Part shown: positions 19,444 through 52,488 of the stretch, piece after piece
Numbering within the stretch: position 1 is the first letter of the stretch
Layout of the letters: every line of letters starts with the position of its first letter
DNA from: Acidobacteriota bacterium
GTDB taxonomy: Bacteria > Acidobacteriota > Thermoanaerobaculia > Multivoradales > JAHZIX01
Assembly: GCA_034211275.1 (NCBI GenBank)
Contig: JAXHTF010000006.1
Coordinates: 17,361-81,360 of the forward strand
Reading direction: 5' to 3'
DNA length: 64,000 bases
Made by a program: the position numbers and the translations under genes
The notes under the pieces: generated by a model
Told to the model about the DNA's origin: nothing
Database searches by the model: none
Seen by the model: the letters and a program-made list of their open reading frames with translations, nothing else

Positions 19444-19550
19444 GCCCGCATTCTACAGCCAATCGGCCTCCTACCGCCCTCCCGGCAAACAGCACCCGCA
19501 CCTCTTGACGTCCCTCGCCGTTCTGCATACACTCTCGCCTCTGACGGTTG

Positions 19551-19626
19551 CCTAGGTAGCTCAGTTGGTAGAGCACGCGACTGAAAATCGCGGTGTCGGT
19601 GGTTCGATTCCGCCCCTGGGCACCAT
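19551..19626 (+). tRNA. tRNA-Phe (anticodon GAA), including encoded CCA.
   Basis: gcctaggtagctcagttggtagagcacgcgactGAAaatcgcggtgtcggtggttcgattccgcccctgggcacca forms a canonical cloverleaf with anticodon loop cuGAAaa. Confidence 0.9.
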
Positions 19627-19693
19627 TTCAATCTCCCAGAATCAACAGTTTGCGTCGGATATAGAGGTCCTCCTTGGAGGGCCTTTTTTGGTT
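19580..19693. repeat. attL: left copy of a ~110-bp direct repeat (tRNA-Phe 3' half plus ~65 bp downstream).
   Basis: gactgaaaatcgcggtgtcggtggttcgattccgcccctgggcaccatttcaatctccca is identical to 52375-52434. The following ~50 bp (…gaggtcctccttggagggccttttttggt) are near-identical to 52441-52488. Confidence 0.85.
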
Positions 19694-19975
19694 TGCCTGA
19701 CCACCGGACGAGCCTTGCGAGCAAGCCGGGGTGCTCGAGCCTCTTGGGTTTGTCGATTCTTGTCCCTTGGACTCCAAGAACAGGAAACGGAAATGCAGCT
19801 ACTGTGAGGTCGTCCTGTAGTTGTCTGATTCTGCCTTTAGGAGCGCCTCATTTTTTAAGGTTCCGAAGTAGCCTGAACGAGCCGGGGCACGGAGCCTCAA
19901 GTGTCGATAGGGCGTCCAAGCCAACGAATGGCCATCATGGCCCGTAGAGCTAGAGAGAGTTGGGAGGTGTGTCCG

Positions 19976-22900: not shown

Positions 22901-24430
22901 GCGGATCCCGGGGTGGGGATCCTCAAGGCCGGCTGGCATTGCGGTGGCAATCCAGCGCCTACCGGTACGCCCCACGACTGCCCGCAGTGCAAGGTGTGTG
23001 ATGGGAGTCGGTGTGTTCCGGGGTGTGATCTCGAGGAAGGTACGGAGCCAGCACCCGTCTTGGGCGAGACTGCATTCGAGGTCGAGGGAGCGTGCCTCTG
23101 TGATGATGGGAACCCTTGTACTTTCAATGACCGCTGTGACACGGGGCCTTGTATCGGGACACACATCAACATCGATTCTGTTCTCGCCTCCGTAGACGGG
23201 GGACCTGGTCCTCTAGAACTTCCTCTCGTAGGAACCAGCACGCGCGAGGTCGAGTTTGTCTCCCAGCCTAGTCCGTCCGACCATGGCTGCCCGGACCTTC
23301 GCTATACCTGGCAAACAGGTGACGGTGGCTACTATCGGGATTCACTGACGCTGCATAGCTACTCCAGAGTGGGTACGTTCAAGCCCACAGCGACGATTAC
23401 ATGTGGATCTTGCCCGTTCGAGACGGCGAGCAAGACGCTCGATGTAGAGGTCTTTCCGCTTGCTATTCGTCTGGAGCAGGAGGGAGATATCGAGATCAGT
23501 ACAGATGGGAAATACACCGAAGATGCGACGATTCGGGTAACGGCTGTTAATGCTGATACCGGTGAGGTAGTGGAAGATTTCCAAGGAATGGTAAGTATTG
23601 AGGAGCGACCTCGTCCACGGGTTGGAACAGTCTACGACAAGTTCGCAGGAGAGCTGCCTGCGGCAGTACAGATTACCGCTGGCGGAACCGCTACCTTTCT
23701 TGCGAGATCCCAAGTCAATCATCAGAGCGGACGCGCTCCGACCTCGGCCCTACTAACAGTACCTGACATGCCCCTCTATGGCGGGCAGGAGCTGGAGGTT
23801 GAGCAATGGGTAGATACAGGGCCAGTAGATCCCCGTTCGCAGGGTGCAGTATATGATTGGCTTGAGCATCGGCTTCGAGATTTGTTTGTGGATTTCTCTT
23901 CCAACCTGGCAGTCAATCCTGCTTTGGAAACGATCAGTCACTATGAAGTCGACGAAAATCTGTCCGCCGTAGGGCAAACTCAGCTCACTCACACACCGAC
24001 CTCAGTGGTTGTGTTTAATCCTCTGGCGGCTACAAATATGAGAGTGCCAGGTACTCAGTCGCTCTCGCGCTGTAGCGACGAAGCGAGAGAGGATTTAGCG
24101 GTAACTTTGATTCATGAGGCGCGACATTCCTACCACGACTATCTGACGACTCTCGATTTGGCAGCGCCTGACGATTTTGATGGGCGTCCGAACAACGATG
24201 ACGATCAGGATTGGCTTGTAGAGGTCGTGCCGGCCGGATTGTGCCCTTGTGACTTTCTAGTCGATACATCCTTGCCAAGGAATGGCTGCGACTACGAAGC
24301 AGGTAACGGAGCAGGGCTTGTCGTCGAGGACTTAACCTTCCTCGGTGATGCAATCGTGGATGATCAGATCGAGGCATTCTATGTGTGGGAGATGGATGCT
24401 GTTCAGTTCTCCATTCAGCACAGCCCCTGA
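19976..24430 (+). CDS. Giant secreted repeat protein (~1484 aa) with multiple Ig-like/Big-type beta-sandwich repeats, a CarboxypepD_reg-like segment, a Cys-rich module and a C-terminal HEARH (HExxH-like) motif.
   Basis: GGAGG-ATG at 19976. Signal/TM segment FLGGMAVLWGAVFPGALLA. Reiterated x(I/V)T(S/A)PxxGxxV modules. CGGNPAPTGTPHDCPQCKVCDGSRCVPGCD...CLCDDGNPCTFNDRCDTGPC. LAVTLIHEARHSYHDY near the end. Confidence 0.7.
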   Translation: MAGREGGVVVARWVGFLGGMAVLWGAVFPGALLASNPLRAAAEQAESREVEGRVPIFADGFESGDYFAWSQAVFDTPDNTPPSLTITAPVAPVLFNEHIVPIELVYSDDDSGVALNSLAVHVDGIPITSSCAIQAGTASCESFYLGAGSHSISASIWDQAGHRTDAARSVTIIRDISPPVITLITPPEENALFATPTLLVTGTVSDADEVADVLVSAEPIPLTDDPPQQERLVQSIRGRIEGDTFSGEVPLGEGLNLVVVRAFDRAGNEAVVSRFATRDSTAPTLAIESPQSGAVVNVDQVLVTGQAFDEAHEVTLSVGGVPTPLDLRSFAATVPLSEGMNAVLVEVIDEAGNTTSETLQVERLTIPTVTITSPTYGTRVGVAAVEVLGTVSDPNASVRVNGVVATTGGGTFQATIPLNPGGTLIAAVATSASGAQATSKTKVFRDLSAPRIAVTSPADGSTVHQAAIPVVGLVNDVVPGTVDAVDVNVWVNGQPAQVANRSFLLPDLVLSPGDNDITVTAEDVAGNLTSETVTVHYEPLVGARIERLSGNLQSAVIETPVGAPLVVRVLDPADQPVEGAVVVFRVAQGNGSVGAGSRTTSVLTDANGEAATPYQLGTRAGVGNQRVIAEAAGYVGSAEFLATALPGPPAYLHVDAGGQQRGAALQLLPDPMSVVVTDAGFNRLPGIEVEYQVAQGQAVFEETATPTLSMLTDADGRAAAQVRLGAEEGVANVVIEVALPGNPTASPATFVASTFAAGNPALTRISGIVLDNASEPVPGVTLSLAGTSHSTQANEDGLFSLAGVPVGTFHLEADGSTATRPGTWPHLEFEITTIPGRENTLGMPIFLLPLDTERGLQVSATEGGTLTLPELPGFSLTVDPGSVTFPDGTQEGTVSVTLVHGDKVPKVPNFGQQPTFLLTIQPAGALFDPPASLSMPNVDALAPGTVTELYSFDHDLGSFVSIGPGTVSEDGTMVVADPGVGILKAGWHCGGNPAPTGTPHDCPQCKVCDGSRCVPGCDLEEGTEPAPVLGETAFEVEGACLCDDGNPCTFNDRCDTGPCIGTHINIDSVLASVDGGPGPLELPLVGTSTREVEFVSQPSPSDHGCPDLRYTWQTGDGGYYRDSLTLHSYSRVGTFKPTATITCGSCPFETASKTLDVEVFPLAIRLEQEGDIEISTDGKYTEDATIRVTAVNADTGEVVEDFQGMVSIEERPRPRVGTVYDKFAGELPAAVQITAGGTATFLARSQVNHQSGRAPTSALLTVPDMPLYGGQELEVEQWVDTGPVDPRSQGAVYDWLEHRLRDLFVDFSSNLAVNPALETISHYEVDENLSAVGQTQLTHTPTSVVVFNPLAATNMRVPGTQSLSRCSDEAREDLAVTLIHEARHSYHDYLTTLDLAAPDDFDGRPNNDDDQDWLVEVVPAGLCPCDFLVDTSLPRNGCDYEAGNGAGLVVEDLTFLGDAIVDDQIEAFYVWEMDAVQFSIQHSP

Positions 24431-24439
24431 GGAGGTCTA

Positions 24440-25423
24440 GTGAGATATTTGGCGTGTACTTTTCTTGCAGTACTTCTCGTGTGTTTGGTCTCGGCCCCTT
24501 CTGAGGCCTCAAGAATACGCCCTGATCCGATAGCTGACGAGCTGCGTAGTGTGTCCCGTCTTGCGAAATGCGGTGGGCAGTATGAACAAGGGCTGATGGC
24601 TCTGAAGGCTGCTATTGATGACCCTTCTCTTGATCCACGCCATCGAGCTCTCGCTGTGGCGCTTCTCGGCGACCTTTTTCTGGAGAGGTCTGATTTCGAG
24701 AAGGAAGGATACTTCATGATGCTTGCGACTCGGGGCCTCTCCGATCCAGATTTTGATGCGGTTGTCCCGGACTCCTTCCAGCAAGCCTCAAGAATTAGTG
24801 TAGAGAAGCTTGATCGCCCTAAAGCTCAGGAAAGCCGCCTCGTTGATCTTGTGAGTGCGCGGTTTGCTGACATTCCCATGGATCTAACAAGGGAGTGGGC
24901 AGCGAGGGAGCTTTGTGATCGGGGATCGGCGAGAGCGGAAGACAGCCTGCGGAGTGCCCTGGGGCCTCGGCTCGATGTGCGAGACCAAGAAGAAATCGAG
25001 TTATGTGGTCGGAAGGTAGCACTCTTGCTGGAATATGAAGATCCGAAGGACGCCTTTCTGATGGCGCTTTCTGAGATGCGCTCGGCGGATCTGGGCGAGC
25101 TTAATTCTCAGTCAGCAAACGAACTCCAACGCTGGGCCGTCGAAGGCCTTCTGCAACTTGATCCTGAGCTCGGTGAGAAGGAACTGCGGTCTATTGTCGC
25201 CGATTCCAATTGGAAATCGAGTGCTCGCAGTCAAGCGATCCGGAGACTGAAAGATCTAGGGTATCAGTATGAAGCCTTGGTCGAGATCGGCGTTGATCCT
25301 ATGGCTCTGATCCGGGAGCGTATCTATCCACTGAGCTACTACCAAGAGCGCGGAATCCCAATGGACCCGTGCGCCAGGCCGATTCCTTTGGCCTCGGAAG
25401 CGTCTGAAGAGACTGACTCCTGA
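24440..25423 (+). CDS. Hypothetical secreted protein, alpha-helical repeat (HEAT/TPR-like).
   Basis: Signal peptide MRYLACTFLAVLLVCLVSAPSEA. Repeated helical hairpins. No enzymatic motif. Confidence 0.5.
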   Translation: MRYLACTFLAVLLVCLVSAPSEASRIRPDPIADELRSVSRLAKCGGQYEQGLMALKAAIDDPSLDPRHRALAVALLGDLFLERSDFEKEGYFMMLATRGLSDPDFDAVVPDSFQQASRISVEKLDRPKAQESRLVDLVSARFADIPMDLTREWAARELCDRGSARAEDSLRSALGPRLDVRDQEEIELCGRKVALLLEYEDPKDAFLMALSEMRSADLGELNSQSANELQRWAVEGLLQLDPELGEKELRSIVADSNWKSSARSQAIRRLKDLGYQYEALVEIGVDPMALIRERIYPLSYYQERGIPMDPCARPIPLASEASEETDS

Positions 25424-25497
25424 GCGCTTTGAGAAGACAAGAGCGGGCTCTTGCAGTCTCCGACCACCAGTGCAAGGACTTGGGAAGGGAGTGAGGA

Positions 25498-28400
25498 ATG
25501 ACAGTGCTGAGATGGACTGGGATCGTGCTTGCCGGCTTGATAGCGCTCTGTGCGACCGCAAGGGCAAGTGCAGAACTCGACTCCTCCTGCCTCATCAGCG
25601 CTCTGAACCGGACGGCTCCGGTGGAAGCGGACGGGACGTGGGTCTTGCCGAATGTGCCGGCGAATCTGGGCAAGGTGCGGCTGCGGGCGACCTGTATTCG
25701 AGATGGCGTTGTTTCCACCGGCCAATCCGAGTTCATCGAGGTGCCAACGGATGGGGTGATCGAGGTGGCGGAGATTCGCTTTGATGTGAGCGAGCCGGTG
25801 CCGGAGCGCCTCGTGCTCAGTGCACCGACCACTTCCTTGACCACCGCTGGACAGACCGTGCAGCTCAACGCGACCGCTACCTATCCGGGTGGCAGCGATG
25901 TGGACGTGAGTACAGCGTCCGCTGGGACCACCTATCGCTCCAGCATGGCGACGGTGGCAAGCGTGGATCCCGATGGACTCGTCACCGCGGCAGCCAGCGG
26001 TACGGTCCTCGTGAGCGCGGTCAACGAGGGAGCGCTGGGGCTCTTGCGGCTATCTGTCGTGCTCTCAGGGGACAGCGATGGCGATGGGCTGCCGGATGAT
26101 TTCGAGCTCGCTAACGGGCTCGATCCCAACAATCCCGACGATGCGTTGCTCGACCATGACCAGGATGGGTTCTCCACCCTGGAGGAGTACCAGCAAGGGC
26201 TCGATCCCTTCGATAGCGATACGGACGATGACCAGCTGCTCGACGGCGCCGAGGTCGGGACCTGGGGCACCAATCCCCTCCTCTTCGATACTGACGGCGA
26301 CGGCCTCTCGGACGGCCTCGAGGTGGCGACGGGGAGTGACCCGCTGGACCGGCTGAGCTTCAACCTCGCTGCGGCGTTGGAGTCCATCACGGTGCTGCCG
26401 GACAGCTTCACCATCATCTACAACACGATTCTCGGCGAAGCCTCCCGGCAGCTGACGGTGACCGGACAGCTCATCGACGGCAACCAGCTCGACATCACCT
26501 CGGACTTTTACGGCACCTCCTACACCTCGGACGATCTGCTCGTGGCCAATTTCGGGGCGGAGCCCGGGCGTGTTTTTGCCGGGGAGGACGGCGTCACCAC
26601 CGTCACCGCGACCTGTAGCGGGTTCAGCGCTCAGGCAGATGTCACGGTGGAGAGCTTCGCGCCCATTGCTCTTTCCTTCCTGGCGCTCGGTGGAACGCCG
26701 CGGGCGGTGGCCCTGGACGGGACTCACGCCTACGCTGCCATGGGGCGCCCGGGACTCAAGATCGTCGATGTCAGCGACCCTGAGCTTCCCTTCGAGGCTG
26801 CTCGCATCTATGTCTCCTCCCCGCCGCCCTTCCGGGAGTACCGCGCGGTTTCCGATGTCGCGGTGCAGGACGGCATGGCCTATGTCGCAGCGGACGGACT
26901 GGCCGTGATCGATGTGACCGTGCCGGCCGCTCCAGTGCAGATTGCCTTCCTCTTGCCACCGGACATGAGCGCAGAGTCGGTGGCCGTTCGGGGGCATCGA
27001 GTGCTCGTCGGCGGGAGTGGCTTCCAGGGAGACCCGGGAGCCCTTGCCCTTATCGATATCAGCGACCCCGTGACCCCAGTGCTTCTCGGAATGGTCGGCC
27101 TGCCCGGGCAAGTCGAGGATGTGCTCTTTGCAGGGCAGTACGCGATTGCCGCGACGGGCTCTGCCGGCGTTCAGGTGGTCGATCTGGCGAACGAAGCGGC
27201 ACCCGAGGTGGTCGGCTCAACGCATACCCGCTCGAATAGTCGCTCCAGTGCGGTGGGGCTGGCGCTCGCGGGCGAGCAGGTCCTGGTGGCTGACGGTGGC
27301 CGGTACGGACTGCCAGGCGAAAAGCCGGGTGGGCTCCGCGTGATCGATCTGGCCGACCCGGCCAATCCCGCCCTCGTAGGGAGCACGAACAATCAGTTCG
27401 GTCTGACCGCTGTCGCTTGGGATGGCACGCTAGCGCTCGCTGCGGACTACTTCTTCGTCAATGGCGTGCCGGTCTTCCGCTTGGGGGAGACGGCGCCGCT
27501 GTGGACCGGCCTGGTGGACTTTTCCGGGCCGCCCAGTGGGCGAGACGACAACGGAGTCGATCTGGCGGTCGGGGGAGGGTTGGTGTACCTGGTCGGCAAT
27601 GAAGGCTCCACCGGTTCAGGAGGGCTTCATATCGGTCGCTACCTGATTCCCTTCGACGCCGAAGGCGTTCCGCCAACGGTGACCTTGACGGCTCCCGCCG
27701 AGGGAACGTTGGTGCCGGAGCGGCAGTGGGTCCAGGTCGCAGCGGATGCCAGCGATGACATCTTCGTGCAGTCCGTGACGTTCTCGCTGGACGGTCAGCC
27801 GGTGCGGGAGGACTTCGCGCCGCCGTATAGCGCCCGTATTCCGGTTCCGGCCGGCGTGGCCTCTGTCACTGTGACAGCGCAAGCCCGGGACGCTGGGGGC
27901 AATGTGTCGCCGGTTGCTTCAGTCGAGCTCGGCATTGAGCCCAACAGCGCACCCGTTGCCACGATTCTGGCGCCTCAGGACGGTTTGGGGGTGCAGGGGG
28001 GCGAGGTGATCTCCACGGTCGTCCAGGCGACGGACGATGTCGAGGTGGATCGGGTGGAGTTCTATGTCGATGGAGCGCTGGTTGGAACCGATGATCGTGG
28101 CCCCTCCTACCAGACCTTTCTGAATCTCGGATCCGCCCCTGGTACCTACCAACTCACTGCTCTTGCCTACGACGACGTTGGTCCCTCCGCGCCTGCGGGT
28201 CCGGTCTCGCTCGTTGTCGTGCCGGACGATCCGCCACAGGCCCAGGTACTGGAGCCGGCGGAAGGGGCTGAAGTCATCGCCTTCTCCTTGATCGATGTCC
28301 TCGCAGGAGCCAGTGATGCCGTGGGGATCGACCGCGTGGACTTCTACCAGGATGGCGCCCTGGTTGGCTCCGACTTTTCCGGGCCGGACTACCGAGCGAC

Positions 28401-29376
28401 GCTCGCGACGCCGGGGCCCGGAGCGGTGTTGGAGCTCTGGGTAGTGGCCTACGACACCGCTGGGCAGGAGACGATGTCGACGGTCAACGAGGTCACAGTG
28501 GTCGCCGATCCGTTGACGGCAGTGACGGGCGTGGTCGTGGGGCTCGCAGATGAGCCCTTCGCTAGCGCCACCGTCTCTGCGCGAACGAATGAGGGCACGA
28601 CCGTCAGCGGAATGAGCGATAGCAGCGGAGAGTTTCTCGTGGAGCAGGTCCCTGCGGCTCAGGGAGATCTCTCGGTCTCGGTCGTCGCGCTGCAAGATGG
28701 GGAAGAGCTGCGGGCGAGCTTGCCGGAGCCGGTCTCGCCGGCAGCGGGGGGCGTCGTGGACGTAGGCGTCCTCGCGCTGTACTACGCAGTGCCGGGCACG
28801 CTGCTACGAGGTGTGGTCGAGGATGACGCAGGGAATCCTGTGCCCGATGCTCAGGTGGCGGTGCATGATCGTTTCCAGCGCCAAGAAACCATCACGGACA
28901 GCTCCGGAGAGTTCGTCTTCTCGCGCTTCCCGGTGTATCCGGGAACCCGCTTCTATCTCTCCGCCGAAGCGACCCTGAGCAGTGTGCTCTACCGAGGGAA
29001 ACTGCCCAATGTCATTCCCAATCCCATCGGCGATACCGATGCCGGCGTGCTGACCCTCGCGCCCGAGGCCGGCGGTGATCCGCTGACTACGGCGATGGGT
29101 ACCGTTCTGGACGAGGAAGGAGCCCCACTGCCGGACTTCGAAGTCGTGGTGACCTCCGACAGCGTCCTTGTGGTGACGATGACAGATGCAAGCGGTCAGT
29201 ACACGGTGCCGGATCTGCCGGCTCTAGATGGCGGCCTCGTCGCTGCGGCCAGCGGGGTCGTCGATGGACAGTCCTATCGCGAGGCGACCGAGGATCCTGC
29301 GGCACCTGTACCTGGTGGGACGACAGTCCTCGATACGCTCTATCCCTTTGGCGAGGACGGTGGGGGTGATGGATAG
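25498..29376 (+). CDS. Giant secreted surface protein (1292 aa) with thrombospondin-type-3-like Ca-binding Asp repeats, LVIVD/beta-propeller-like repeats and many Ig-like/CarboxypepD_reg-like modules.
   Basis: Signal peptide. DSDGDGLPDDFELANGLDPNNPDDALLDHDQDGFSTLEEYQQGLDPFDSDTDDDQLLDGAEV...FDTDGDGLSDGLEV (TSP3-like). Repeated GxAYVA..GLAVIDV..P / LALIDISDP / VQVVDLAN / LRVIDLADP (LVIVD-like). Serial Big-like units. Confidence 0.7.
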   Translation: MTVLRWTGIVLAGLIALCATARASAELDSSCLISALNRTAPVEADGTWVLPNVPANLGKVRLRATCIRDGVVSTGQSEFIEVPTDGVIEVAEIRFDVSEPVPERLVLSAPTTSLTTAGQTVQLNATATYPGGSDVDVSTASAGTTYRSSMATVASVDPDGLVTAAASGTVLVSAVNEGALGLLRLSVVLSGDSDGDGLPDDFELANGLDPNNPDDALLDHDQDGFSTLEEYQQGLDPFDSDTDDDQLLDGAEVGTWGTNPLLFDTDGDGLSDGLEVATGSDPLDRLSFNLAAALESITVLPDSFTIIYNTILGEASRQLTVTGQLIDGNQLDITSDFYGTSYTSDDLLVANFGAEPGRVFAGEDGVTTVTATCSGFSAQADVTVESFAPIALSFLALGGTPRAVALDGTHAYAAMGRPGLKIVDVSDPELPFEAARIYVSSPPPFREYRAVSDVAVQDGMAYVAADGLAVIDVTVPAAPVQIAFLLPPDMSAESVAVRGHRVLVGGSGFQGDPGALALIDISDPVTPVLLGMVGLPGQVEDVLFAGQYAIAATGSAGVQVVDLANEAAPEVVGSTHTRSNSRSSAVGLALAGEQVLVADGGRYGLPGEKPGGLRVIDLADPANPALVGSTNNQFGLTAVAWDGTLALAADYFFVNGVPVFRLGETAPLWTGLVDFSGPPSGRDDNGVDLAVGGGLVYLVGNEGSTGSGGLHIGRYLIPFDAEGVPPTVTLTAPAEGTLVPERQWVQVAADASDDIFVQSVTFSLDGQPVREDFAPPYSARIPVPAGVASVTVTAQARDAGGNVSPVASVELGIEPNSAPVATILAPQDGLGVQGGEVISTVVQATDDVEVDRVEFYVDGALVGTDDRGPSYQTFLNLGSAPGTYQLTALAYDDVGPSAPAGPVSLVVVPDDPPQAQVLEPAEGAEVIAFSLIDVLAGASDAVGIDRVDFYQDGALVGSDFSGPDYRATLATPGPGAVLELWVVAYDTAGQETMSTVNEVTVVADPLTAVTGVVVGLADEPFASATVSARTNEGTTVSGMSDSSGEFLVEQVPAAQGDLSVSVVALQDGEELRASLPEPVSPAAGGVVDVGVLALYYAVPGTLLRGVVEDDAGNPVPDAQVAVHDRFQRQETITDSSGEFVFSRFPVYPGTRFYLSAEATLSSVLYRGKLPNVIPNPIGDTDAGVLTLAPEAGGDPLTTAMGTVLDEEGAPLPDFEVVVTSDSVLVVTMTDASGQYTVPDLPALDGGLVAAASGVVDGQSYREATEDPAAPVPGGTTVLDTLYPFGEDGGGDG

Positions 29377-29479
29377 CTCGGAGACGCGAGTGAGCCGGGG
29401 ATTCTCTTAGGCAGGGTGTTCCGCCTCGACAGGCTGTTGTCTTCCTTAGCGGTGTCTGTCGGCTGTCTACGCTAGGGTT

Positions 29480-29737
29480 ATGGCTGCATCTTCCGAGGCC
29501 CCACCAATGGCGACCCTGACCATCGAGCTGGCTTCCATTCCGCCGGTGCTCAACGATCCGGAGTTCACGCGCTATCTGATCGCCGGATCGCTCTACACCA
29601 AGGGCCTGCTCTCCGGAGAGCAGGCGCGGCAGTTGACGGGCGACGTACGGCGCGTCTTCGAGGAGAAGATGGCTACCTATGGGTTCCCGATCATGCCGGA
29701 TGCCGAGGTAGATATCCTTTCAGAGCTGAATGCCTAG
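29480..29737 (+). CDS. UPF0175-family small protein (antitoxin-like helical fold).
   Basis: 85 aa, AGSLYTKGLLSGEQARQLTGDVRRVFEEKMATYGFPI resembles the UPF0175 consensus (ALeLYkeGklSlgkAAELAG..r.eF...L...GI). Confidence 0.5.
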   Translation: MAASSEAPPMATLTIELASIPPVLNDPEFTRYLIAGSLYTKGLLSGEQARQLTGDVRRVFEEKMATYGFPIMPDAEVDILSELNA

Positions 29738-29841
29738 GTACGGCGCTTTCGTCGCCGATGCCAGTCCCCCGACCCCTCGCTCGACAAGCCGCCCATGGGG
29801 TCGCGACGAGCGGCGCACTCTGCTGGAAGGAGAAGCACAGG

Positions 29842-30657
29842 ATGTCGGTAAGCGAAGCCTCGGATCGTCTGTTGACTTCAGGCCCGCGGGCACTTTCCGA
29901 TATAGAGCTCCTGAGCGTGATTCTCGGCCACCGGTCGGAGATGCCGGAGCAGGTCGCTGAGCACCTGCTGGCGGGACCAGACGCCTGGTCCGAGCTGGTT
30001 CTGGCCGATTCAGCGGTGCACGAACGACCAGATCTCCAGCCCGCTGAAGCTGGTGTCGTGGCGGCGACCCTTGAGCTGGGCAGACGCCTTGCCGAACGGC
30101 GCATCCCCAAACGCAGACCACTTTCGAAGCCCCGGGCGCTCACGACCTATCTCGACCTCCGCTACGGGTACCGAGATCAGGAAGTCCTCGGCGCTTTGTA
30201 TTTGGACGCTCGCCACCGGCTACTCAGCGAGACGGAGATCTTCCGCGGGACGCAGAACCGTACCAGTGTTGAACCGGGACCAATCCTCCGCAAAGGGCTA
30301 CTGCAGGGTGCGGCCAGCGTGGTGATCTTCCACACGCACCCCAGTGGGAATCCCGCCGCCAGCGCCGCCGACATCGCCTTCACCCGCCGCCTGGCGCAGT
30401 CGGCGGATATCGTTGGGCTCAAGCTGGTCGATCACCTCATTCTGGGGCGCGGAGGGCGCTGGATGTCTTTGCTCAAGCGCGCATGGGTCACGGGACCTCG
30501 GCGCAAGCGCAAGTCGCCGCCGCCGAAATCGAAGGCCGCGAAGCCGAAGTACCGCCATCCCGAGACCGGAGAGACCTGGGCCGGGCGGGGCAGCATGGCG
30601 CGTTGGTTGCGGCTGGAGCTGGAGGCTGGGCGGTCGCTGGATGAGTTCCGGGTCTGA
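29842..30657 (+). CDS. RadC-like JAB/MPN-domain protein fused to an H-NS-type C-terminal DNA-binding domain.
   Basis: AGGAG-N9-ATG at 29842. RadC N-terminal SDIELLSVILG, JAMM motif VVIFHTHPSGNPAASAADIAFTRRL, then a basic linker and KYRHPETGETWAGRGSMARWL...GRSLDEFRV (H-NS C-terminus: KYrdPeTGkTWtGRGr.P.Wi...Gk.lddFli). Confidence 0.7.
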   Translation: MSVSEASDRLLTSGPRALSDIELLSVILGHRSEMPEQVAEHLLAGPDAWSELVLADSAVHERPDLQPAEAGVVAATLELGRRLAERRIPKRRPLSKPRALTTYLDLRYGYRDQEVLGALYLDARHRLLSETEIFRGTQNRTSVEPGPILRKGLLQGAASVVIFHTHPSGNPAASAADIAFTRRLAQSADIVGLKLVDHLILGRGGRWMSLLKRAWVTGPRRKRKSPPPKSKAAKPKYRHPETGETWAGRGSMARWLRLELEAGRSLDEFRV

Positions 30658-30779
30658 GCTTCTCTGAATCGCCGTCTGACTGCTGCGAGCGCCGCCGGAT
30701 ATGCTCGTTTCGCTGAGATGGTGGAGTAGTCTGCTCTCACTCTAATCTCTTTGCTCTGCGCTTCCGCCTTCCCCTCCGC

Positions 30780-32090
30780 TTGGCCAGTTTCCTGGGCACT
30801 CCCTTTCGCTGGCTCTTCGGGATCTTCCGCTCGCACATCCACGGCGACGCCCGCTTCATGCGCTGGTGGGAGCGCCGGCGGTTTCTGCATCCGCGGCACC
30901 ATGGGCTGGTGCTCGGCCGGAATCAGCGGCTCAGCCGGCAGGACTCGTTCAAGAATCTGGCGCTGGTGGCGCCGACGGGATCAGGGAAGACCACGCGGTA
31001 TGTGATTCCCAACGTGTTGCAGGTCGAGGGCTCGGTGGTGGTGACCGATCCCTCCGGAGAGATCCACCAGCACACTGCGGAGCCGCTGCGAGCCCGCGGG
31101 TTCGGGATCCAGGTGCTCCAGCCGGCGAAGCTCGGGGAGAGTGCCCGCTTCAATCCTCTGATGTACTGGCAATCACCCCAAGAGCTCCGCCAGCTGGCGA
31201 CGCAGCTTGGTATGGCCACGCAGGGGCGCTCCTCCGATCCGTTCTGGACGACCTCGGCGATTAACCTGCTTTTCGTGTTGCTCACCGCTCTCCGCAACGT
31301 CGAAGACCGTCGACGCCACACGCTCGGACATCTACGGGATCTCTTGAACCAGTGTGGTGCGGCGGAGGGTCAAGACTTCGAGCGCTTCATGGCCCGGTAC
31401 CTGGCGATGGAGAAGCGGGTCTGGAGCGAGTACCAAGCCTTCCGCGGGCAGGATCCGAAAGTGGCCGCCTCGATCACTTCCAGCGCCCGGGCTGCGCTGG
31501 AGCTGTGGAGCGATCCGGATATCTGCGCCCTCACCAGCGAGCACACCATCGACCTGGCGGCGCTTCGGCAGCAGCGCACGGCTATCTACCTCATCGTGCC
31601 AGAGCACCAGATCCGCTACTTCGGTCCCCTGCTCAACCTCTTCTACTCCGCTTGCTTCAACCGCTGCCTGGTCAGCGGGCACGCACCTGAGGAAGAGCCG
31701 GTCTATTTCCTCCTCGATGAGTTCGGGAACCTCGGCTACGTTCACAACTTCGCTAGCGTCATCACCACCCTGCGCAAGCGACGGTGCTCCATCAGCCTGA
31801 TCCTCCAGGATCTGTCCCAACTCCGTGCCATCTACGGCCCCGACGAAGCCCGCACCATCTTCTCCGGCGGCTGCGCCAATAAGCTCTTCTACGGTGGGCT
31901 CGACTTGGAAACGGCTGAGTATGTCGAGCGCGCCCTCGGCAAGCGCACCGAATACGACACCGTCTTCGGCGGGATCAGTGATCGCGCTCGGACGGTGGCG
32001 GTGCCGCTGATGACGGCGGATCAGGTGCGGAGGATGCGTTGGGGAGAGGCGGTGTTGTTGGCGGGGAAGGAGAGGCCGATACAAATCTAG
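30780..32090 (+). CDS. Type IV coupling protein-like ATPase (VirD4/TraG/TraD family) lacking an N-terminal membrane anchor.
   Basis: Walker A LALVAPTGSGKTTRYVIPNVL, Walker B/DE VYFLLDEFGNLGY, C-terminal ...LILQDLSQLRAIYG...SGGCANKLFYGGLD. No TM helices. The track start is TTG at 30780; ATG at 30858 is an alternative. Confidence 0.65.
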   Translation: MASFLGTPFRWLFGIFRSHIHGDARFMRWWERRRFLHPRHHGLVLGRNQRLSRQDSFKNLALVAPTGSGKTTRYVIPNVLQVEGSVVVTDPSGEIHQHTAEPLRARGFGIQVLQPAKLGESARFNPLMYWQSPQELRQLATQLGMATQGRSSDPFWTTSAINLLFVLLTALRNVEDRRRHTLGHLRDLLNQCGAAEGQDFERFMARYLAMEKRVWSEYQAFRGQDPKVAASITSSARAALELWSDPDICALTSEHTIDLAALRQQRTAIYLIVPEHQIRYFGPLLNLFYSACFNRCLVSGHAPEEEPVYFLLDEFGNLGYVHNFASVITTLRKRRCSISLILQDLSQLRAIYGPDEARTIFSGGCANKLFYGGLDLETAEYVERALGKRTEYDTVFGGISDRARTVAVPLMTADQVRRMRWGEAVLLAGKERPIQI

Positions 32091-32121
32091 ACTACGGCCG
32101 GCTCGTTCGAGTTCAGTCCGG

Positions 32122-33696
32122 TCAGAGTGCCCTTGAGAGCATTTCTTTGAAGCGTTCCAGGGCGATAGCTATCGGTCCGGCAAAATCCCCTGCCGTGTCC
32201 TTGAGCTGTCCGAGGAGAGCAAGAATCTGCTGTACTCGATTCCAGTCCATCTCCTTCTTCTTGACCTCCTCTTCGAGCCCCTTAGCCTCGGTGAGCGCTT
32301 GCCTAGACTGCTCGCTAGGCTTACTGTCATGCCATCTTCCAATCCAGGTCTTTAGGTCCTGGATATCAGTCAAGAGGAACTCCACCTTCTCAAGGGTGAT
32401 TTCTCCTCGAATGTTGTCGCCTTTGTAAACGATTATCGTCTTTGCGTGGAAAGTGTCGCCTTCGTATTTACCCCTCATTGCGCCGATTTCCTCTCTTGGT
32501 TGGTTGCTGTCAGATGACAGCTGTGGTGGAAACTTAGAAACCCATTCGGGGACTCGAAGAGGGCCGACTACTCTGGTTTGCTCTTTGCTCACCTTTGGAT
32601 TACTTCGCTCGCGCTCGAGACAATCTGCGAGCTCTTTGAAACGTTTGCTGGACTCTTCGTGGCTGGAGTCCTCAGGAGCCTCGAGGAAGAAGTTCATGAA
32701 TCCATGCTCTTGCTCGTCAGAGTGAATCTTCGTTGTGTTGCCGACTCTCCATATGTCGATCTCTCCAAAGCATTTTGTAATGTCGTGAAGCAATCCACGA
32801 GTGGTGTGAGCGCCTTCAGGTTCGTTGACGAACGTATAGGAGAATTGTACGCCTCGGAACCTGTGGAGCTGCCCCGGGGGTAAAATCGAAATTCGAAGAA
32901 TATGGCTATGAATATCTATTGATGCAAGGGCATAGATCGTTTCGTTGTAGCAAGGGGCGCCGCAGATATTCAGTACGATGTCTCTCCAGAGAGATGTCTT
33001 CGTAATTGATATGCCACGGGCTACGCATTCACCCTCGATAAATTTATCTCGTGCTCTCCGTTCCCTTTCTTCTGGGCTGTTCGCGTGCCCCCACTCGTCG
33101 AACTCTTGGATTTCTCTAGTGTAGGTCTTGTAGCGGTAGTAGTCTCGAAGGTGCCGATAGCTGACTCGTTTAAGGTCAGGATGGTCTCTGTCTGGTGGAA
33201 ATAAAAACTTATTTCTTGCTTCATGGTTAGCTACAAGAATTCGATTTTTGGCGTAGTCTGCCGCTTCTCTTGAGCGGCTCTCGGCAGTTTTGAGGCTAGC
33301 GTCCGCTGTTTCTCGCACTTTCTGGCAGTCTAGGATGATATTCCAGAGCGCAGAGCGATGTCCGCTTCGGACAACGTTCGTAGTTAGAATGTTCATTCCG
33401 ACATCTTCGCTTGTTAGAATCTCCGTAATCCTCTGGAGAGATCCGGGGCGATGGCTCATGTTGACATTGAACCTTACTAAGTAAGGCCAAAGTTCTGTGC
33501 GGAATGGGCTTACTATTATGTCGTGTCGGTTAGGGAAGGTTTTGTAGTCTTCTAAGATGTCGCCGCTTTCGTCTCTTCGAGGAGGGTAATACAGGCAGTA
33601 GACTTGGCCTCCAGTCTCAATGCCGAGTGGGCGAAGAAGGTAATCCTCTATGAGGAGCTGGTTCCCTTGGATCTTAATCAAGTCACCGTAGATCAT
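32122..33696 (-). CDS. Hypothetical protein (524 aa), low GC; last gene of a three-gene cargo operon.
   Basis: No recognisable catalytic motif. It has a possible ACT-like segment (GSLQRITEILTSEDVGMNILTTNVV) and an R-x5-H match (RILVANH). Local GC is ~50% against ~68% in the host. Confidence 0.5.
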   Translation of the reverse strand: MIYGDLIKIQGNQLLIEDYLLRPLGIETGGQVYCLYYPPRRDESGDILEDYKTFPNRHDIIVSPFRTELWPYLVRFNVNMSHRPGSLQRITEILTSEDVGMNILTTNVVRSGHRSALWNIILDCQKVRETADASLKTAESRSREAADYAKNRILVANHEARNKFLFPPDRDHPDLKRVSYRHLRDYYRYKTYTREIQEFDEWGHANSPEERERRARDKFIEGECVARGISITKTSLWRDIVLNICGAPCYNETIYALASIDIHSHILRISILPPGQLHRFRGVQFSYTFVNEPEGAHTTRGLLHDITKCFGEIDIWRVGNTTKIHSDEQEHGFMNFFLEAPEDSSHEESSKRFKELADCLERERSNPKVSKEQTRVVGPLRVPEWVSKFPPQLSSDSNQPREEIGAMRGKYEGDTFHAKTIIVYKGDNIRGEITLEKVEFLLTDIQDLKTWIGRWHDSKPSEQSRQALTEAKGLEEEVKKKEMDWNRVQQILALLGQLKDTAGDFAGPIAIALERFKEMLSRAL

Positions 33697-35622: not shown

Positions 35623-36474
35623 TCAGCGCTCCCGGTCGCGAGATTGGGGCTTTTTGGCTGGAGGCGCACGGGAGCGGTCGAGCGAGGAATTGGGAAGCTC
35701 CGGCGCAAGCCGCCAGGCCTGACGCGCGCGCTCAAAGGTCTCGGCGAGCCCCAGCGTCGTCAGCCGATAGCGTCGACCACTGCGCAGATCCTCGACGCCG
35801 ATGGTCTTGCCCCGCTGGTAGAGGCGGAGGCCCTGCTGAAGGAGGCGCTGGTAGCACTCGGCGCCCGACCATGACCGGCTGAGCTCCTGCTGGATCAGTT
35901 CACATAGGACTTGCTTGCGACTGGGCGCTCGCTCTCCACGCCGGCGACGCTCTTGTTCTGCCCGCGTCTCGTGTTGCTTGCTTCGCGAACGGGGTCCTTG
36001 CGCCAGGGAGTGGCTCAGCTGCGGATAGCGCTGCTTCTGGTACTGCTCCAGCTGCTGTTGTACCTGGCGGAACTCTCGTCTCGACAACCGCAGGCGCTGC
36101 GAGCTGCCGACGTTGTTGGCGGAGATCACCAGGTGAACGTGCGGGTTGTCCGCATCGAAGTGAGCGCGACCGTAGGCCAGGGCGTACGGAGCCCGCAGCT
36201 CCAGGTACCGGCGGGTCAGGTCTGTCAGATCCTCAGGGGCGAGCTGATCTCGATCCCCCGGTGCAAAGCTCAGCACCTCGTGGTAGAGCACGTTCCCGTT
36301 CTTGCGCGGTGGCAGGAGATGGGCGTTGTGCAGGAACTCCCGCCGGATCGCTTCGGGTGAACCGTGTCCTCCGAAGTTGTGGAGGAGTGGAGTGCTGGCT
36401 TCTTGGGGCCGGTCGATGTAGCTCAGCAGCTGGCCGAAGCTGATGCTCTTACGCGCCATCGACTTGATGATCAT
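35623..36474 (-). CDS. Relaxase/mobilization nuclease (MobA/VirD2-like, HUH).
   Basis: MIIKSMARKSISFGQLLSYI... NVLYHEVLSFAP ... NPHVHLVISANNV is the Relaxase/Mobilisation nuclease domain pattern with its His cluster. Start is the Met at 36474 (cat verified), overlapping the mobC end. Confidence 0.75.
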   Translation of the reverse strand: MIIKSMARKSISFGQLLSYIDRPQEASTPLLHNFGGHGSPEAIRREFLHNAHLLPPRKNGNVLYHEVLSFAPGDRDQLAPEDLTDLTRRYLELRAPYALAYGRAHFDADNPHVHLVISANNVGSSQRLRLSRREFRQVQQQLEQYQKQRYPQLSHSLAQGPRSRSKQHETRAEQERRRRGERAPSRKQVLCELIQQELSRSWSGAECYQRLLQQGLRLYQRGKTIGVEDLRSGRRYRLTTLGLAETFERARQAWRLAPELPNSSLDRSRAPPAKKPQSRDRER

Positions 36475-36841
36475 GAGCCTGGCTATCGCTGGGAAGTTCC
36501 TCGAGGGTCTTCTGGAGCACGCCGACCACGCGCTCCAGCGTGAGCACGAGCTTGCCAGCGTTGCGCAGGTCTTGGTGGGTGACCCGCTGGAAGGAGTTGG
36601 CATGCGCCGCCATCTGGTTGAGGTTGGTGCCGACGCGACGAATCTCCTGGATCATCTGCCCCAGGTGCTTCTGGAGAGAGTCCGGCAGCATCGTGCGTCG
36701 CTGGCAGTAGGCGATGGCCGCATCCCGTAGGAAGGGCGCGAGCTTTGCGCCGAAGCTCCGGGCGGTGGTGAGCAGCAGCTCGTGCTGGTGGGGGTAAAGG
36801 TTGCAGGTGACGCGGTGCGTGTAGGTGCCGTGCAAGGCCAT
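36449..36841 (-). CDS. mobC: MobC-family relaxosome accessory protein.
   Basis: EIRRVGTNLNQMAAHAN matches the MobC signature (IRRIGNNLNQIAR..N). It sits upstream of and overlaps the relaxase gene. Confidence 0.7.
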   Translation of the reverse strand: MALHGTYTHRVTCNLYPHQHELLLTTARSFGAKLAPFLRDAAIAYCQRRTMLPDSLQKHLGQMIQEIRRVGTNLNQMAAHANSFQRVTHQDLRNAGKLVLTLERVVGVLQKTLEELPSDSQAHDHQVDGA

Positions 36842-43160: not shown

Positions 43161-43170
43161 CTTTCCCTTC

Positions 43171-44058: not shown

Positions 44059-44188
44059 GACGAAGCCGCTAGGAGGCTTCAGCCGCCAAGCCGGACCGCT
44101 GACGAGCTGGCTGGTTGAAAAGCCAGCTGCTCTATCTCCAGAAGCTGAGAGAGTTGAGCAGGTGACTGCAATCGCCAATCAACCATGG

Positions 44189-46471: not shown

Positions 46472-46732
46472 GACTAGGTGGAATCATAATGCAAGAAGAT
46501 GGCATCCGAAAAGGGCATCTTAGGTGCTAGAAGATGGTAGCCTTGAGAAAATCAACATCGAGCCGGCATTTCTGGTTGACGCGCGGGTGGAGGAGAAGCT
46601 ACCTTACAGGTACTCAAGGCGAGTCTTGTGGTCACAAGTCCAGCCGAGCTTCACTTTCAAAAATCACCGGAAACCCGCATCCAGCCTACTGATTCGTGGC
46701 TTCGCCCAGGTCCGTTCTGGCTGGGGGTCGTG

Positions 46733-46765
46733 TGGTCGCAGGTTCAAGTCCTGTCTCCCCGACCA
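46733..46765 (+). other. Orphan tRNA 3'-end fragment (T-arm, acceptor 3' strand, ACCA), probably an att-site remnant.
   Basis: tcgcaggttcaagtcctgtctccccgacca has a T-loop TTCAAGT and ends in CCA. No matching 5' acceptor strand (cggggag) was found within 120 nt upstream. It lies 100 nt upstream of the third recombinase gene. Confidence 0.5.
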
Positions 46766-46866
46766 AAATCCCCTCCAACAGCGGCTTTCCGGGCGATTCA
46801 AGGGAAGAGATCAGGGCCCCGGTGACCACATGACCGAGTCATGAGGTCACTCTAACCCCTCTTCCC

Positions 46867-52170: not shown

Positions 52171-52374
52171 GGGGCATCTCCAGGTCGAGCGGCCAGGTCC
52201 GAGATCGAGGCTCGCGCAACCAGTGCGCAACCAAAACGCAACCAGGATAGGCCGAAATCCATGGTGCAAGCTCGCTGTCCATGGCTCGAAGGCTAGCACA
52301 TAAGTATAGTAATTAGAGAGACTTAAGAGGTCTTGTCGTAGTTGATCGAAATCTGTGTAAGACGCCTGTTCGAG

Positions 52375-52488
52375 GACTGAAAATCGCGGTGTCGGTGGTT
52401 CGATTCCGCCCCTGGGCACCATTTCAATCTCCCAAAAAGCAAGAGCTTGTGTCCGATACGAAGGTCCTCCTTGGAGGGCCTTTTTTGG
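52375..52488. repeat. attR: right copy of the tRNA-Phe-derived direct repeat.
   Basis: Matches tRNA-Phe from the anticodon loop to the 3' end plus downstream sequence; see attL. Confidence 0.85.

Follow-up and report, generated by a model that had tools for sequence, protein, structure and literature searches.

Few bacterial proteins without a known activity are as widespread as RadC, whose name is admittedly misleading. Full-length RadCs of the YicR type (TIGR00608, or PF20582 plus PF04002) are built of an HhH-like N-terminus and a JAB domain. The type usually seen on islands is the short, JAB-only form, which also occurs on prophages and conjugative elements; examples are YeeS, YkfG and YfjY of Escherichia coli. 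Neither an activity nor a substrate has been established for any RadC (PMC11981726). The family is linked to DNA by fusions of RadC to HhH, ArdC-N, DnaG and DinG (PMC3239186, PMC5512222), the fusions to ArdC-N being described for some RadC domains (PMC3239186), and RadC domains are also found in polyvalent proteins (PMC5512222).

The C-terminal domains of H-NS-family proteins contact DNA through an AT-hook-like motif. Bv3F-type domains, which carry RGR in this motif and are typical of high-GC hosts, insert it into the AT-rich minor groove (PMC8476142), and MvaT binds DNA with an asparagine at the groove-inserting position (PMC8476142). A DNA-binding module is combined with a zinc metallo-hydrolase in ArdC of the conjugative plasmid R388, which protects incoming DNA in the recipient cell (PMC7213743).

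We analyzed a 64,000-nucleotide stretch (the window) of contig JAXHTF010000006.1 from an Acidobacteriota bacterium (assembly GCA_034211275.1), in which a full-length RadC is joined to an H-NS C-terminal domain. This combination is rare, conserved and so far undescribed.

The fusion gene and its protein

The fusion gene occupies positions 29842 to 30657 of the plus strand and encodes 271 amino acids plus a stop, as supported by Pfam and NCBIfam matches, the ribosome-binding site, homologue N-termini and an exact-sequence lookup. The first-pass annotation had started the gene at 29758. The 299-aa frame from 29758 to 30657 is indeed present, as is the 85-aa frame upstream of it (29480 to 29737), but the start of the fusion gene had to be moved 84 nt inward. 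ATG 29842 is almost certainly the real start, since a Shine-Dalgarno-like GGAAGGAG (29825 to 29832, plus strand; read from the sequence) lies 9 nt upstream and every homologue begins at the equivalent methionine. A 100%-identical database protein of 271 aa begins there as well. The NCBI call, MDY7091801.1, is shorter (246 aa) and is named "JAB domain-containing protein." A promoter/terminator scan of positions 29000 to 32300 yielded nothing promoter-like and a single terminator-like hairpin, which falls inside the coding sequence and is at chance level.

The 299-aa frame matched the RadC family PF04002 over residues 123 to 240 (299-aa numbering) with an E value of 3e-31 and 108.3 bits against a cutoff of 22.1. 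TIGR00608 ("radc") was passed at 135.1 bits against a cutoff of 133.85, and the stricter equivalog NF000642 was not reached (156.8 against 180). A PDB sequence search found RadC 2QLC at 6e-12, and Foldseek aligned the JAB domain with the same structure at an E value of 5e-11, a TM score of 0.85 and an rmsd of 1.8 Å. The AlphaFold model of the whole protein had a pLDDT of 86, with a flexible linker.

The JAB domain covers residues 95 to 214 (30124 to 30483, plus strand; PF04002, Foldseek match to 2QLC, dN/dS of ~0.05 against the relative in locus L001). It contains the JAMM signature reported at first pass, including FHTHPSGNPAASAAD, as judged by PF04002, TIGR00608 and the alignment. The glutamate E114 lies in DQEV (codon at 30181 to 30183, plus strand), and the zinc-site motif HxHx7Sx2D reads H164-T-H166-PSGNPAA-S174-AA-D177 (30331 to 30372, plus strand). 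E114, H164, H166, S174 and D177 were invariant across 56 aligned sequences.

The N-terminal region (residues 1 to 94; 29842 to 30123, plus strand) is helical, with five helices in the AlphaFold model. It gave a weak UPF0758_N/HhH-like match (PF20582, 21.6 bits, below the 27.1-bit cutoff), and homologues P0002 to P0005 have precomputed PF20582 matches. Compared with housekeeping full-length RadCs, the N-terminus is about 17 aa shorter and the protein has a 2-aa deletion; in the alignment, both the truncation and the deletion are common to the fused family of the window. In other respects the likeness to full-length RadCs is close: the protein is 50 to 55% identical to RadCs of Thermoanaerobaculia and other Acidobacteriota, with the E...HxHx7Sx2D residues intact and the 2QLC fold. 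Judged from these matches, the protein is a RadC of the full-length type whose zinc-site motif is intact, extended by a basic linker and then an H-NS C-terminal domain, together about 57 aa. Short JAB-only proteins are also borne by mobile elements, whereas the window protein is long, HhH-containing and housekeeping-like.

Between RadC and the tail lies the Lys/Arg/Pro-rich linker noted at first pass (residues 215 to 233; 30484 to 30540, plus strand). It is predicted to be flexible (pLDDT of about 63 to 65), and a basic stretch resembling RRKVKPK recurs in it across the family. The tail itself (30541 to 30654, plus strand) contains KYRHPETGETWAGRGSMARWL...GRSLDEFRV and was correctly called an H-NS C-terminal domain. 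PF00816 (Histone_HNS) matched residues 263 to 299 (299-aa numbering) over the full profile, positions 1 to 38 of 38, with an E value of 1.8e-11 and 44 bits against a cutoff of 25.6. The PDB sequence search that hit RadC 2QLC also hit, independently, the Bv3F C-terminal domain 2L92 at 3.8e-4, and a profile of the tail found Ler (2LEV) at 4e-10 and Bv3F at 9e-8. Both the full-length and the tail-only AlphaFold models showed a β-hairpin plus a helix, and Foldseek matched the tail-only model to five PDB entries, all of them C-terminal domains of the H-NS family (Ler, Bv3F, H-NS and MvaT). By these sequence, profile and fold matches to the PDB, the similarity is not due to chance. As modeled, the tail is a complete, well-folded H-NS C-terminal domain of the Bv3F type.

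Bv3F and Ler have the C-terminal fold and most signature residues (KYR.P.TG.TW.G.G....WL) in common with the fusion protein, and Ler resembles it further in that only the C-terminal domain is held in common with H-NS. Unlike these proteins, the fusion protein has an enzyme in place of the coiled-coil oligomerization domain. The N-terminal dimerization/oligomerization domain of H-NS is absent, the first 214 residues being RadC; therefore, the protein is not a member of the H-NS silencer family and carries the silencer's DNA-binding domain only. The same kind of tail is found on proteins with other N-terminal partners, namely ParB_N plus HTH_ParB (locus L061) and DUF6538 (locus L010), from Proteobacteria rather than Acidobacteriota. 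Thus, the H-NS C-terminal domain behaves as a portable DNA-binding module.

The first-pass description of the tail as almost motif-perfect does not hold at one position. In the AT-hook-like loop T245-W-A-G-R249-G-S251 (30574 to 30594, plus strand), the first arginine is kept and the second, groove-inserting arginine is replaced by serine, whereas every solved family member has arginine or lysine after G-x-G. The aligned loops read GVGR in Ler, GRGR in Bv3F and GQGR in H-NS and StpA, as opposed to GRGS in the fusion protein; at the groove-inserting position, solved relatives have VGR, RGR, QGR or RGK, as opposed to RGS. In the closest relative, P0002, the first arginine is lost too (GCGS), and across the tabulated fused proteins the second position is occupied by R, S, N, H, L or F. 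Going by these residues, the window's own subclade may bind DNA less strongly than a canonical AT-hook does, or in another way. Since MvaT binds DNA through asparagine at this site, loss of binding is not a necessary outcome of Ser251.

Distribution of the fusion and selection on it

At 90% identity, fused proteins formed about 33 clusters among 5.8 billion proteins (about 7 full-length and about 26 short-form), and all of the named clusters are from Acidobacteriota. Two of the best 80 RadC loci in a metagenome scan were fused, as were 2 of the best 80 tail loci in a genome scan. No separate H-NS-like frame was found near an unfused RadC in any of 78 loci. The literature search found no description of a RadC-H-NS fusion, and a 2025 PNAS paper on ParB, searched for H-NS fusions, has H-NS in its reference list only. 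The first-pass impression that the architecture is unusual is borne out by these figures. A tail-only profile search of the 5.8-billion set returned proteins of 100 aa or less and not the fused ones, and is therefore uninformative on architectures; it did establish that stand-alone H-NS proteins of the GRGRMAxWL type exist. The scan of viral contigs yielded no relatives and, therefore, no association with phages.

The short fused subgroup (about 26 clusters; for example, P0300, P0324 and P0319) ends in this same H-NS tail, and one protein, P0323, has two H-NS domains in tandem. The JAB domains of the window's family are 60% identical to those of unfused full-length RadCs and about 41% identical to those of the short fused forms, while the tails are near identical. 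None of 100 bootstraps recovered a clade of all fused proteins, and only 4 of 100 recovered the window's family as monophyletic from JAB columns alone, in a neighbor-joining tree of 122 columns that is poorly resolved; because of this low support, the grouping leans on the shared indels and the tail. By these comparisons, the same type of tail is carried by at least two RadC lineages.

Between the window and L001, pN and pS were 0.041 and 0.589 for the tail, 0.065 and 0.633 for the JAB domain, and 0.474 and 0.726 for the linker. The linker is the least constrained region, with a dN/dS of ~0.29; the dN/dS ratios are rough because, with dS above 1, the synonymous sites are almost saturated. As estimated from this pair, the tail is constrained as much as the catalytic domain, both being under strong purifying selection.

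These data bear on two alternative explanations of the gene. The fusion could be an artefact or neutral, that is, a chimera produced by assembly or a frameshift, or a captured housekeeping radC with an idle tail. Such an origin would be in keeping with a sequence derived from a metagenome-assembled genome and with the generic 246-aa NCBI annotation. However, the same architecture occurs on many independent contigs (NCBI, JGI, ENA and Logan), the reading frame is continuous from RadC to the tail, the tail is under the selection described above, and the N-terminal truncation and the 2-aa deletion are derived features found family-wide. The chimera reading is effectively refuted by this evidence, and we regard an artefactual or neutral fusion as exceedingly improbable.

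Alternatively, RadC could have replaced the H-NS coiled coil as an oligomerization scaffold, yielding an architectural or "stealth" nucleoid protein that coats or bridges AT-rich DNA and lowers the cost of the island. H-NS homologues are common on plasmids and islands (PMC7074111, PMC11796372), the tandem domains of P0323 would allow one polypeptide to bridge DNA, and RadC 2QLC was crystallized with eight chains. Oligomerization of RadC in solution, however, is putative. Moreover, the catalytic residues are all invariant and the JAB domain is strongly constrained, which indicates that enzymatic activity has been retained. We therefore consider a purely architectural role quite improbable.

The island and the neighboring genes

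The fusion gene lies inside a 32.8-kb element inserted in tRNA-Phe, between 60-bp direct repeats. The target, tRNA-Phe (GAA), is at 19550 to 19625 (plus strand; ARAGORN, 68.6 bits with Rfam). The left repeat, attL (19579 to 19638), is perfect and consists of the 3' half of tRNA-Phe plus 13 nt, with weaker similarity running on to about 19692; the second copy, attR, is at 52375 to 52434, leaving about 32.8 kb between the repeats. Next to attR is a tyrosine integrase with an arm-binding domain (51010 to 52422, minus strand; PF00589, PF13356 and PF22022), which has a 61%-identical homologue in locus L003. A MobA/VirD2-like relaxase is encoded at 35623 to 36603 (minus strand; PF03432 at 46.6 bits, with a weak MobP1 match), and a primase is also encoded on the island. 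Housekeeping genes are found outside the repeats. The mobile-island context proposed at first pass is therefore confirmed and mapped by the tRNA-Phe target, the att repeats, the integrase, the relaxase and a coupling protein.

Among the open reading frames of the island, Pfam, NCBIfam and PADLOC recognized no mating-pair-formation type IV secretion system (VirB4-type ATPase and partners); several large frames match nothing. The island may be mobilizable only, or it may encode an unrecognized secretion system. Its composition is a mosaic, with cargo blocks of 47 to 54% GC at 32 to 35, 37.5 to 42, 44 to 46.5 and 47.5 to 51 kb in a host of 66 to 69% GC.

Directly downstream of the fusion gene is a gene for a VirD4-like type IV coupling protein of 436 aa (30780 to 32090, plus strand; PF02534 at 219 bits), which scored 249.7 bits against a cutoff of 250 for the CD1115 family NF045973. 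This neighbor recurs in three related loci. Homologues are 89% identical in L001 and 67% identical in L003, and the copy in L091 starts about 160 bp after the fused gene. The fusion gene thus differs from genes for full-length RadCs in being placed beside a coupling-protein gene on a mobile island, not in a housekeeping locus. Short fused forms are not adjacent to coupling proteins, which confines the link with conjugation to the family of the window.

The upstream 85-aa gene (29480 to 29737, plus strand) passed PF03683 marginally, at 29.8 bits against a cutoff of 27.9, in agreement with its initial description as UPF0175-like. It is 46% identical to the UPF0175 protein of L001, where, in the 80%-identical relative, UPF0175 is located downstream of the fusion gene and is paired with a PIN toxin. 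In the window, only 104 nt separate the UPF0175 gene from the start of RadC-H-NS, leaving no room for a PIN frame. The gene is absent from L002 and L003. It is thus an orphan antitoxin homologue without a PIN partner and a nonconserved neighbor, and we rejected it as a functional partner of the fusion because its position is not conserved. The frames upstream of the fused gene in the window, L002, L084 and L088 are mutually unrelated; the only genes that paired up were UPF0175 (window and L001), RHH-like (L002 and L003) and DUF1249-like (L085 and L086).

Candidate roles of a RadC proposed to be tethered to DNA

With moderate confidence, we propose that the gene encodes a DNA-tethered RadC hydrolase and belongs to the backbone of a mobilizable or conjugative element integrated at tRNA-Phe in its Acidobacteriota host. 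Through the tail and the basic linker, the enzyme would be fixed to the minor groove of duplex DNA that is curved or comparatively rich in AT. Where the host has 66 to 69% GC, such a target would be horizontally acquired DNA, including the element's own 47 to 54% GC cargo blocks. Lacking the H-NS oligomerization domain, the protein would form no silencing filaments; at most, it would be a competitor of such filaments, in the manner of Ler. From its tethered position, the JAB site would act locally on a DNA-associated substrate and might thereby help the element to become established, or its genes to be expressed, once transferred. Whatever is said of the enzyme over and above a zinc hydrolase fold whose site is intact, we infer.

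The design resembles that of ArdC, in which DNA binding is likewise combined with a zinc metallo-hydrolase and which is also carried by a conjugative element. The analogy is functional only, as the domains are unrelated: ArdC has an N-domain that binds single-stranded DNA and a zincin, whereas the fusion combines a binder of the double-stranded minor groove with a JAB domain, and the Pfam and NCBIfam scans of the fusion protein gave no match to the ArdC family. Because ArdC shows the same logic, and because the fold and the HxHx7Sx2D motif are JAMM-peptidase-like, we lean slightly, and tentatively, toward a DNA-bound protein as the JAB substrate; a nucleic-acid substrate is slightly less favored.

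With the same tethering, the JAB domain could process nucleic acids, as a nuclease or otherwise, in line with the proposal of Iyer and Aravind. In that case, the H-NS tail would join HhH, ArdC-N, DnaG and DinG as a further DNA-binding partner of RadC and would bring the enzyme to duplex DNA while the element undergoes conjugative processing, second-strand synthesis or recombination. On related DinG helicases, RadC stands in for a 3'-5' exonuclease, and most proteins with the deaminase-like fold act on nucleotides (PMC3239186, PMC5512222). The prediction of two DNA-binding modules in one protein, the HhH-like N-terminus and the H-NS tail, would suit such an enzyme, as would the primase and the relaxase on the same island. 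We view a nucleic-acid-processing enzyme as possible though on the unlikely side.

Among readings with a protein substrate, the first-pass annotation had suggested action on nucleoid or silencing complexes: the tail would bring a JAB peptidase to H-NS-like filaments, where it would degrade silencer or nucleoid proteins and de-repress island genes. This is a special case of the tethered hydrolase that we prefer. The low-GC cargo blocks in a GC-rich host are natural targets of a silencer, and stand-alone proteins with this type of tail occur in some Acidobacteriota genomes (L007 and L067). Anti-silencers with the H-NS C-terminal domain only (Ler) and island-encoded antagonists of H-NS are known (PMC7074111). 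The proposal, however, depends on RadC being a peptidase, an activity that is putative, with the literature debating nuclease against peptidase. Within the window, no resident H-NS-like silencer was seen, and stand-alone H-NS-like genes were few in Acidobacteriota genomes, as counted by a scan with tail-specific patterns rather than by a survey of H-NS in general. Competition for identical sites is also argued against by the degeneracy of the RGS loop. We thus consider counter-silencing by proteolysis unlikely. A broader form, in which RadC-H-NS would be a DNA-guided JAB peptidase that removes DNA-bound host proteins (xenogeneic silencers and restriction or defense factors) from AT-rich foreign DNA, seems to us equally doubtful. 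If true, it would represent counter-silencing or anti-defense by targeted proteolysis, and RadC proteins would gain their first known class of substrates.

Under the tethered hydrolase that we prefer, the tail should set the location of the enzyme, and this offers a practical handle: chromatin immunoprecipitation sequencing (ChIP-seq) or DNA pull-downs could reveal both the site of action and the substrate. The locus is also the basis for a family of elements, undescribed until now, that integrate at tRNA-Phe in the poorly studied Acidobacteriota. It extends the H-NS C-terminal domain to the mobile elements of this phylum, as a portable targeting module and not as a silencer. For the RadC family, the joining of RadC to a binder of the duplex minor groove is rare, is under strong purifying selection and is found in at least two lineages, and it therefore adds independent contextual evidence for RadC working at DNA. 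Thus, the fusion points to RadC as a protein that works on or at DNA.

Gene and domain structure of the RadC-H-NS protein

An ORF of 299 aa at 29758-30657 matched the RadC family in Pfam (PF04002, 3e-31, 108 bits), and its final 37 residues covered the entire Histone_HNS profile (PF00816, 1.8e-11, 44 bits versus a 25.6-bit cutoff). The TIGR00608 "radc" model scored 135.1 bits (cutoff, 133.85). The start was placed at the ATG at 29842, yielding a protein of 271 aa, because GGAAGGAG lies 9 nt upstream of this codon and an equivalent methionine begins all homologues. At NCBI the gene is annotated merely as a "JAB domain-containing protein" of 246 aa (MDY7091801.1); start choice differs among the NCBI, Logan, and JGI gene callers (246 or 271 aa). 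The RadC frame stays open for 393 codons, back to 29476 (29476-30654), overlapping the UPF0175 gene in another frame, with no start codon ahead of 29758.

In the numbering of the 271-aa protein, a helical region with a weak match to the HhH-like UPF0758_N domain (residues 1-94) is followed by a JAB domain with a complete JAMM signature (residues 95-214), a Lys/Arg/Pro-rich linker (residues 215-233), and the H-NS C-terminal domain (residues 234-271). The signature residues, E114 and H164-x-H166-x7-S174-x2-D177, were invariant in a 56-sequence alignment. The AlphaFold2 model was confident (pLDDT 86), with a linker of lower confidence and then a beta-hairpin and helix, and its JAB part superposed on Chlorobium RadC 2QLC (E 5e-11, TM 0.85). 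For the tail modeled alone (pLDDT 81), the PDB matches numbered just five, and each was a C-terminal domain of the H-NS family: Ler-DNA (2LEV, rmsd 1.6 Å), Bv3F (2L92), Salmonella H-NS (2L93), 1HNR, and MvaT (2MXE). Sequence searches concurred with the structural matches. The two ORFs and both domain calls of the first-pass annotation were borne out.

The tail (pN 0.041, pS 0.589) and the JAB domain (pN 0.065, pS 0.633) were the most constrained parts relative to the 80%-identical protein of the related locus L001, the N-terminal region (pN 0.224, pS 0.659) and the linker (pN 0.474, pS 0.726) being looser; with synonymous sites near saturation, the pN/pS ratios are rough.

Distribution and origin of the fusion

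Seven clusters among the best 120 whole-protein homologues combined PF04002 with PF00816; the remainder were ordinary RadCs of ~228 aa from Acidobacteriota and Thermoanaerobaculia (50-55% identity). Searched exhaustively with a profile, a set of 1.84 billion representatives yielded 46,232 RadC-like proteins, the top 150 of which included the window's family as a single representative, together with six clusters of short, JAB-only RadCs bearing the same tail. When the search was seeded with these short forms, 23 clusters with both domains were recovered, and the organism names given for them were solely Acidobacteria or Acidobacteriota MAGs. Across ~186,000 species-representative genomes, this tail type was encoded at 238 loci. 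It was attached to RadC in 2 of the best 80, both from Acidobacteriota; the others encoded either fusions to ParB and DUF6538 or conventional H-NS-like proteins (100-180 aa), the latter chiefly from Burkholderiales and Alphaproteobacteria. Fused RadCs occupied 2 of the best 80 RadC loci among 241 million metagenome records, and the viral collection contained no fused loci. Given these counts, and an estimated size of roughly 33 clusters at 90% identity, the architecture is rare, as had been proposed from the window alone, and, judged by the sequences sampled, appears to be restricted to one lineage. No description of a RadC and H-NS fusion was found in the literature searched; RadC fusions on record involve HhH, ArdC-N, DnaG primase, and DinG helicase (PMC3239186, PMC5512222, PMC11981726).

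The JAB domain of the window's family was 60% identical to unfused full-length RadCs and 41% identical to the short fused forms. Despite this divergence the tails were nearly alike (KPKYRHPETGETWAGRGSMARWLR in the window protein versus KPKFRHPETGETWAGRGHMARWLR in the short protein P0300). A bootstrapped neighbor-joining tree of JAB domains nested the window's family among unfused full-length RadCs, and a clade uniting all fused proteins appeared in 0 of 100 replicates. Because the JAB domains diverge, the tails are alike, and no fused clade was found, this short and weakly resolved tree tentatively suggests at least two acquisitions of the tail, or its transfer between RadC lineages.

Two short RadCs, P0323 (L085 3858-4793; from one of the six clusters) and P0337, have a tandem pair of H-NS C-terminal domains (GRGSRPRW and GRGSMAGW), through which one protein chain could touch DNA at two places. 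Tails of this type were also fused to ParB_N and HTH_ParB in Mitsuaria (L061 6111-8333) and to a DUF6538 protein in Accumulibacter (L010 6420-8150). A third partner, at L074 986-4429, was an otherwise unannotated frame open for 1148 codons from stop to stop. At the level of predicted proteins, these architectures mark the H-NS C-terminal domain as a portable add-on to several proteins that act on DNA.

The tRNA-Phe island and its relatives

The fused gene is carried by a complete integrative element at 19579-52434, with ~32.8 kb between 60-bp perfect direct repeats (19579-19638 and 52375-52434) that include the 3' half of tRNA-Phe (19550-19625). Beyond the 60 bp, a weaker, imperfect similarity extends across the terminator-like hairpin that follows the tRNA. 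Housekeeping genes for PurH, LolA, and CorA lie to the left, and an SBP_bac_3+SLT transglycosylase and a phosphoesterase to the right. The island encodes a VirD4-like coupling protein, a MobA/VirD2-like relaxase, a Toprim primase, and three tyrosine recombinases, one of which has an arm-binding domain and adjoins attR, along with three large Ig-repeat surface proteins, UPF0175, RadC-H-NS, and a candidate defense ATPase (PADLOC PDC-S06). No VirB4-type secretion ATPase was recognized within it; the island may therefore be mobilizable rather than self-transmissible, or may be served by an unrecognized transfer system. Its GC content is mosaic, with backbone genes at 62-66% and four cargo blocks at 47-54%.

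The surface-protein genes (19901-29376; 1509, 327, and 1292 aa) encode Ig-repeat, LVIVD, TSP3, and CarboxypepD_reg proteins. The two largest were 75-79% identical to those of L001 and the 327-aa protein 49%; all three genes were absent from the related loci L002 and L003. Such proteins are unusual as backbone or cargo of a mobile element and may be adhesins for mating. A low-GC block (~50% GC; 42913-47769) encodes the 760-aa AAA_13 ATPase (PDC-S06, 701 bits), and the extra tyrosine recombinase genes that bracket it (42913-44058 and 46867-47769) suggest that this cargo is a nested or cassette-like module; the first of these recombinase ORFs overlaps the primase ORF (42036-43160) by ~250 nt. In another low-GC block, a 569-aa protein (47892-49601) weakly matched the antiphage protein GapS1 (31 bits, far below the 320-bit cutoff), and nearby ORFs at 49831-50766, 40068-41885, and 32122-33696 had no match in any library. 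Outside the island, Rfam confirmed a tRNA at 59773-59847 (58 bits), for which ARAGORN gave tRNA-Asn and ATT, an unusual anticodon. The tRNA shares sequence with the start region of a minus-strand ORF (59779-61035); directly before the tRNA, at ~59760, lies a GGTTCGATTCCCCACC-like sequence resembling the 3' end of another tRNA.

The coupling-protein gene was a conserved neighbor of the fused gene (89% identical in L001 and 67% in L003), and in the related locus L091 it begins ~160 bp downstream, matching the window's arrangement. L003 also had a copy of the attR-side integrase (61% identical), and Replic_Relax and HTH_17 genes were present in L002 and L003. The upstream 85-aa ORF (29480-29737) had been likened to UPF0175, and this homology held marginally (PF03683, 29.8 bits versus a 27.9-bit cutoff). 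As a conserved partner, UPF0175 was rejected: its homologue in L001 (46% identical) lies downstream, paired with a PIN toxin, and none was found in L002 or L003. The window has no room for a PIN gene beside it. An RHH/CopG-like small protein adjoins the full-length RadC-H-NS gene at L002 2448-2657 (-) and L003 10451-10786 (-), the two being 65% identical.

The short fused forms had different contexts, comprising HTH_17 with an AAA_25 ATPase, many HTH_3/31 regulators, DUF1249, and runs of small genes without a Pfam match; no coupling protein was found near them. These surroundings, too, look like mobile elements. L084, L086, L087, and L089 share a two-gene arrangement within a few kilobases of the short RadC-H-NS gene, in which a TPR-like gene (~445 aa) precedes one of ~104 aa. 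This recurrence may mark another conserved gene module or element type.

Possible DNA contacts and function

Among H-NS C-terminal domains, the tail falls in the Bv3F-like "RGR" subgroup, which a review has linked to high-GC hosts (PMC8476142); the window flanks are 66-69% GC. The residue after G-x-G enters the minor groove (PMC8476142) and is always Arg or Lys in solved relatives (Ler, GVGR; Bv3F, GRGR; H-NS and StpA, GQGR; 2JR1, GRGK). The window protein, unlike every one of these, has Ser (GRGS). Its closest relative, P0002, has GCGS, and the tabulated fused proteins have R, S, N, H, L, or F at this position. The tail's description as "almost motif-perfect" was an overstatement. Within the window protein itself, the chief evidence against canonical binding of AT-rich minor grooves is this Ser, but it need not abolish binding, because MvaT binds DNA with Asn there (PMC8476142).

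The protein combines an intact, conserved zinc-hydrolase site with a DNA-binding fold of H-NS type, complete and under constraint, that is attached through a flexible basic linker; the protein lacks an H-NS oligomerization domain and is carried on a mobile-element backbone. The tail and linker would direct the enzyme to duplex DNA that is curved or comparatively AT-rich; in a high-GC host such DNA would be foreign, the island's own cargo included. There the JAB site would act on a bound substrate, and the element would gain from this. We lean slightly toward a protein substrate, because JAMM peptidases share this fold and motif and because ArdC, in which a DNA-binding domain is joined to a metalloprotease, provides a working precedent in conjugation (PMC7213743). 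The nuclease activity hypothesized by Iyer and Aravind for the RadC JAB domain is nearly as likely. The counter-silencing protease envisaged in the first-pass annotation, whose underlying observation was confirmed and whose interpretation was supported in part, would be a specific subcase of a tethered hydrolase. It is not directly supported: the window shows no resident silencer, and a peptidase activity of RadC is hypothetical.

What the fusion adds to the RadC family is an undescribed DNA-binding partner, and the Acidobacteriota elements that carry it are likewise an undescribed family; it is not a new kind of system. Its main value lies in the contextual evidence, and the experimental handle, that it offers on RadC function, a question of long standing.
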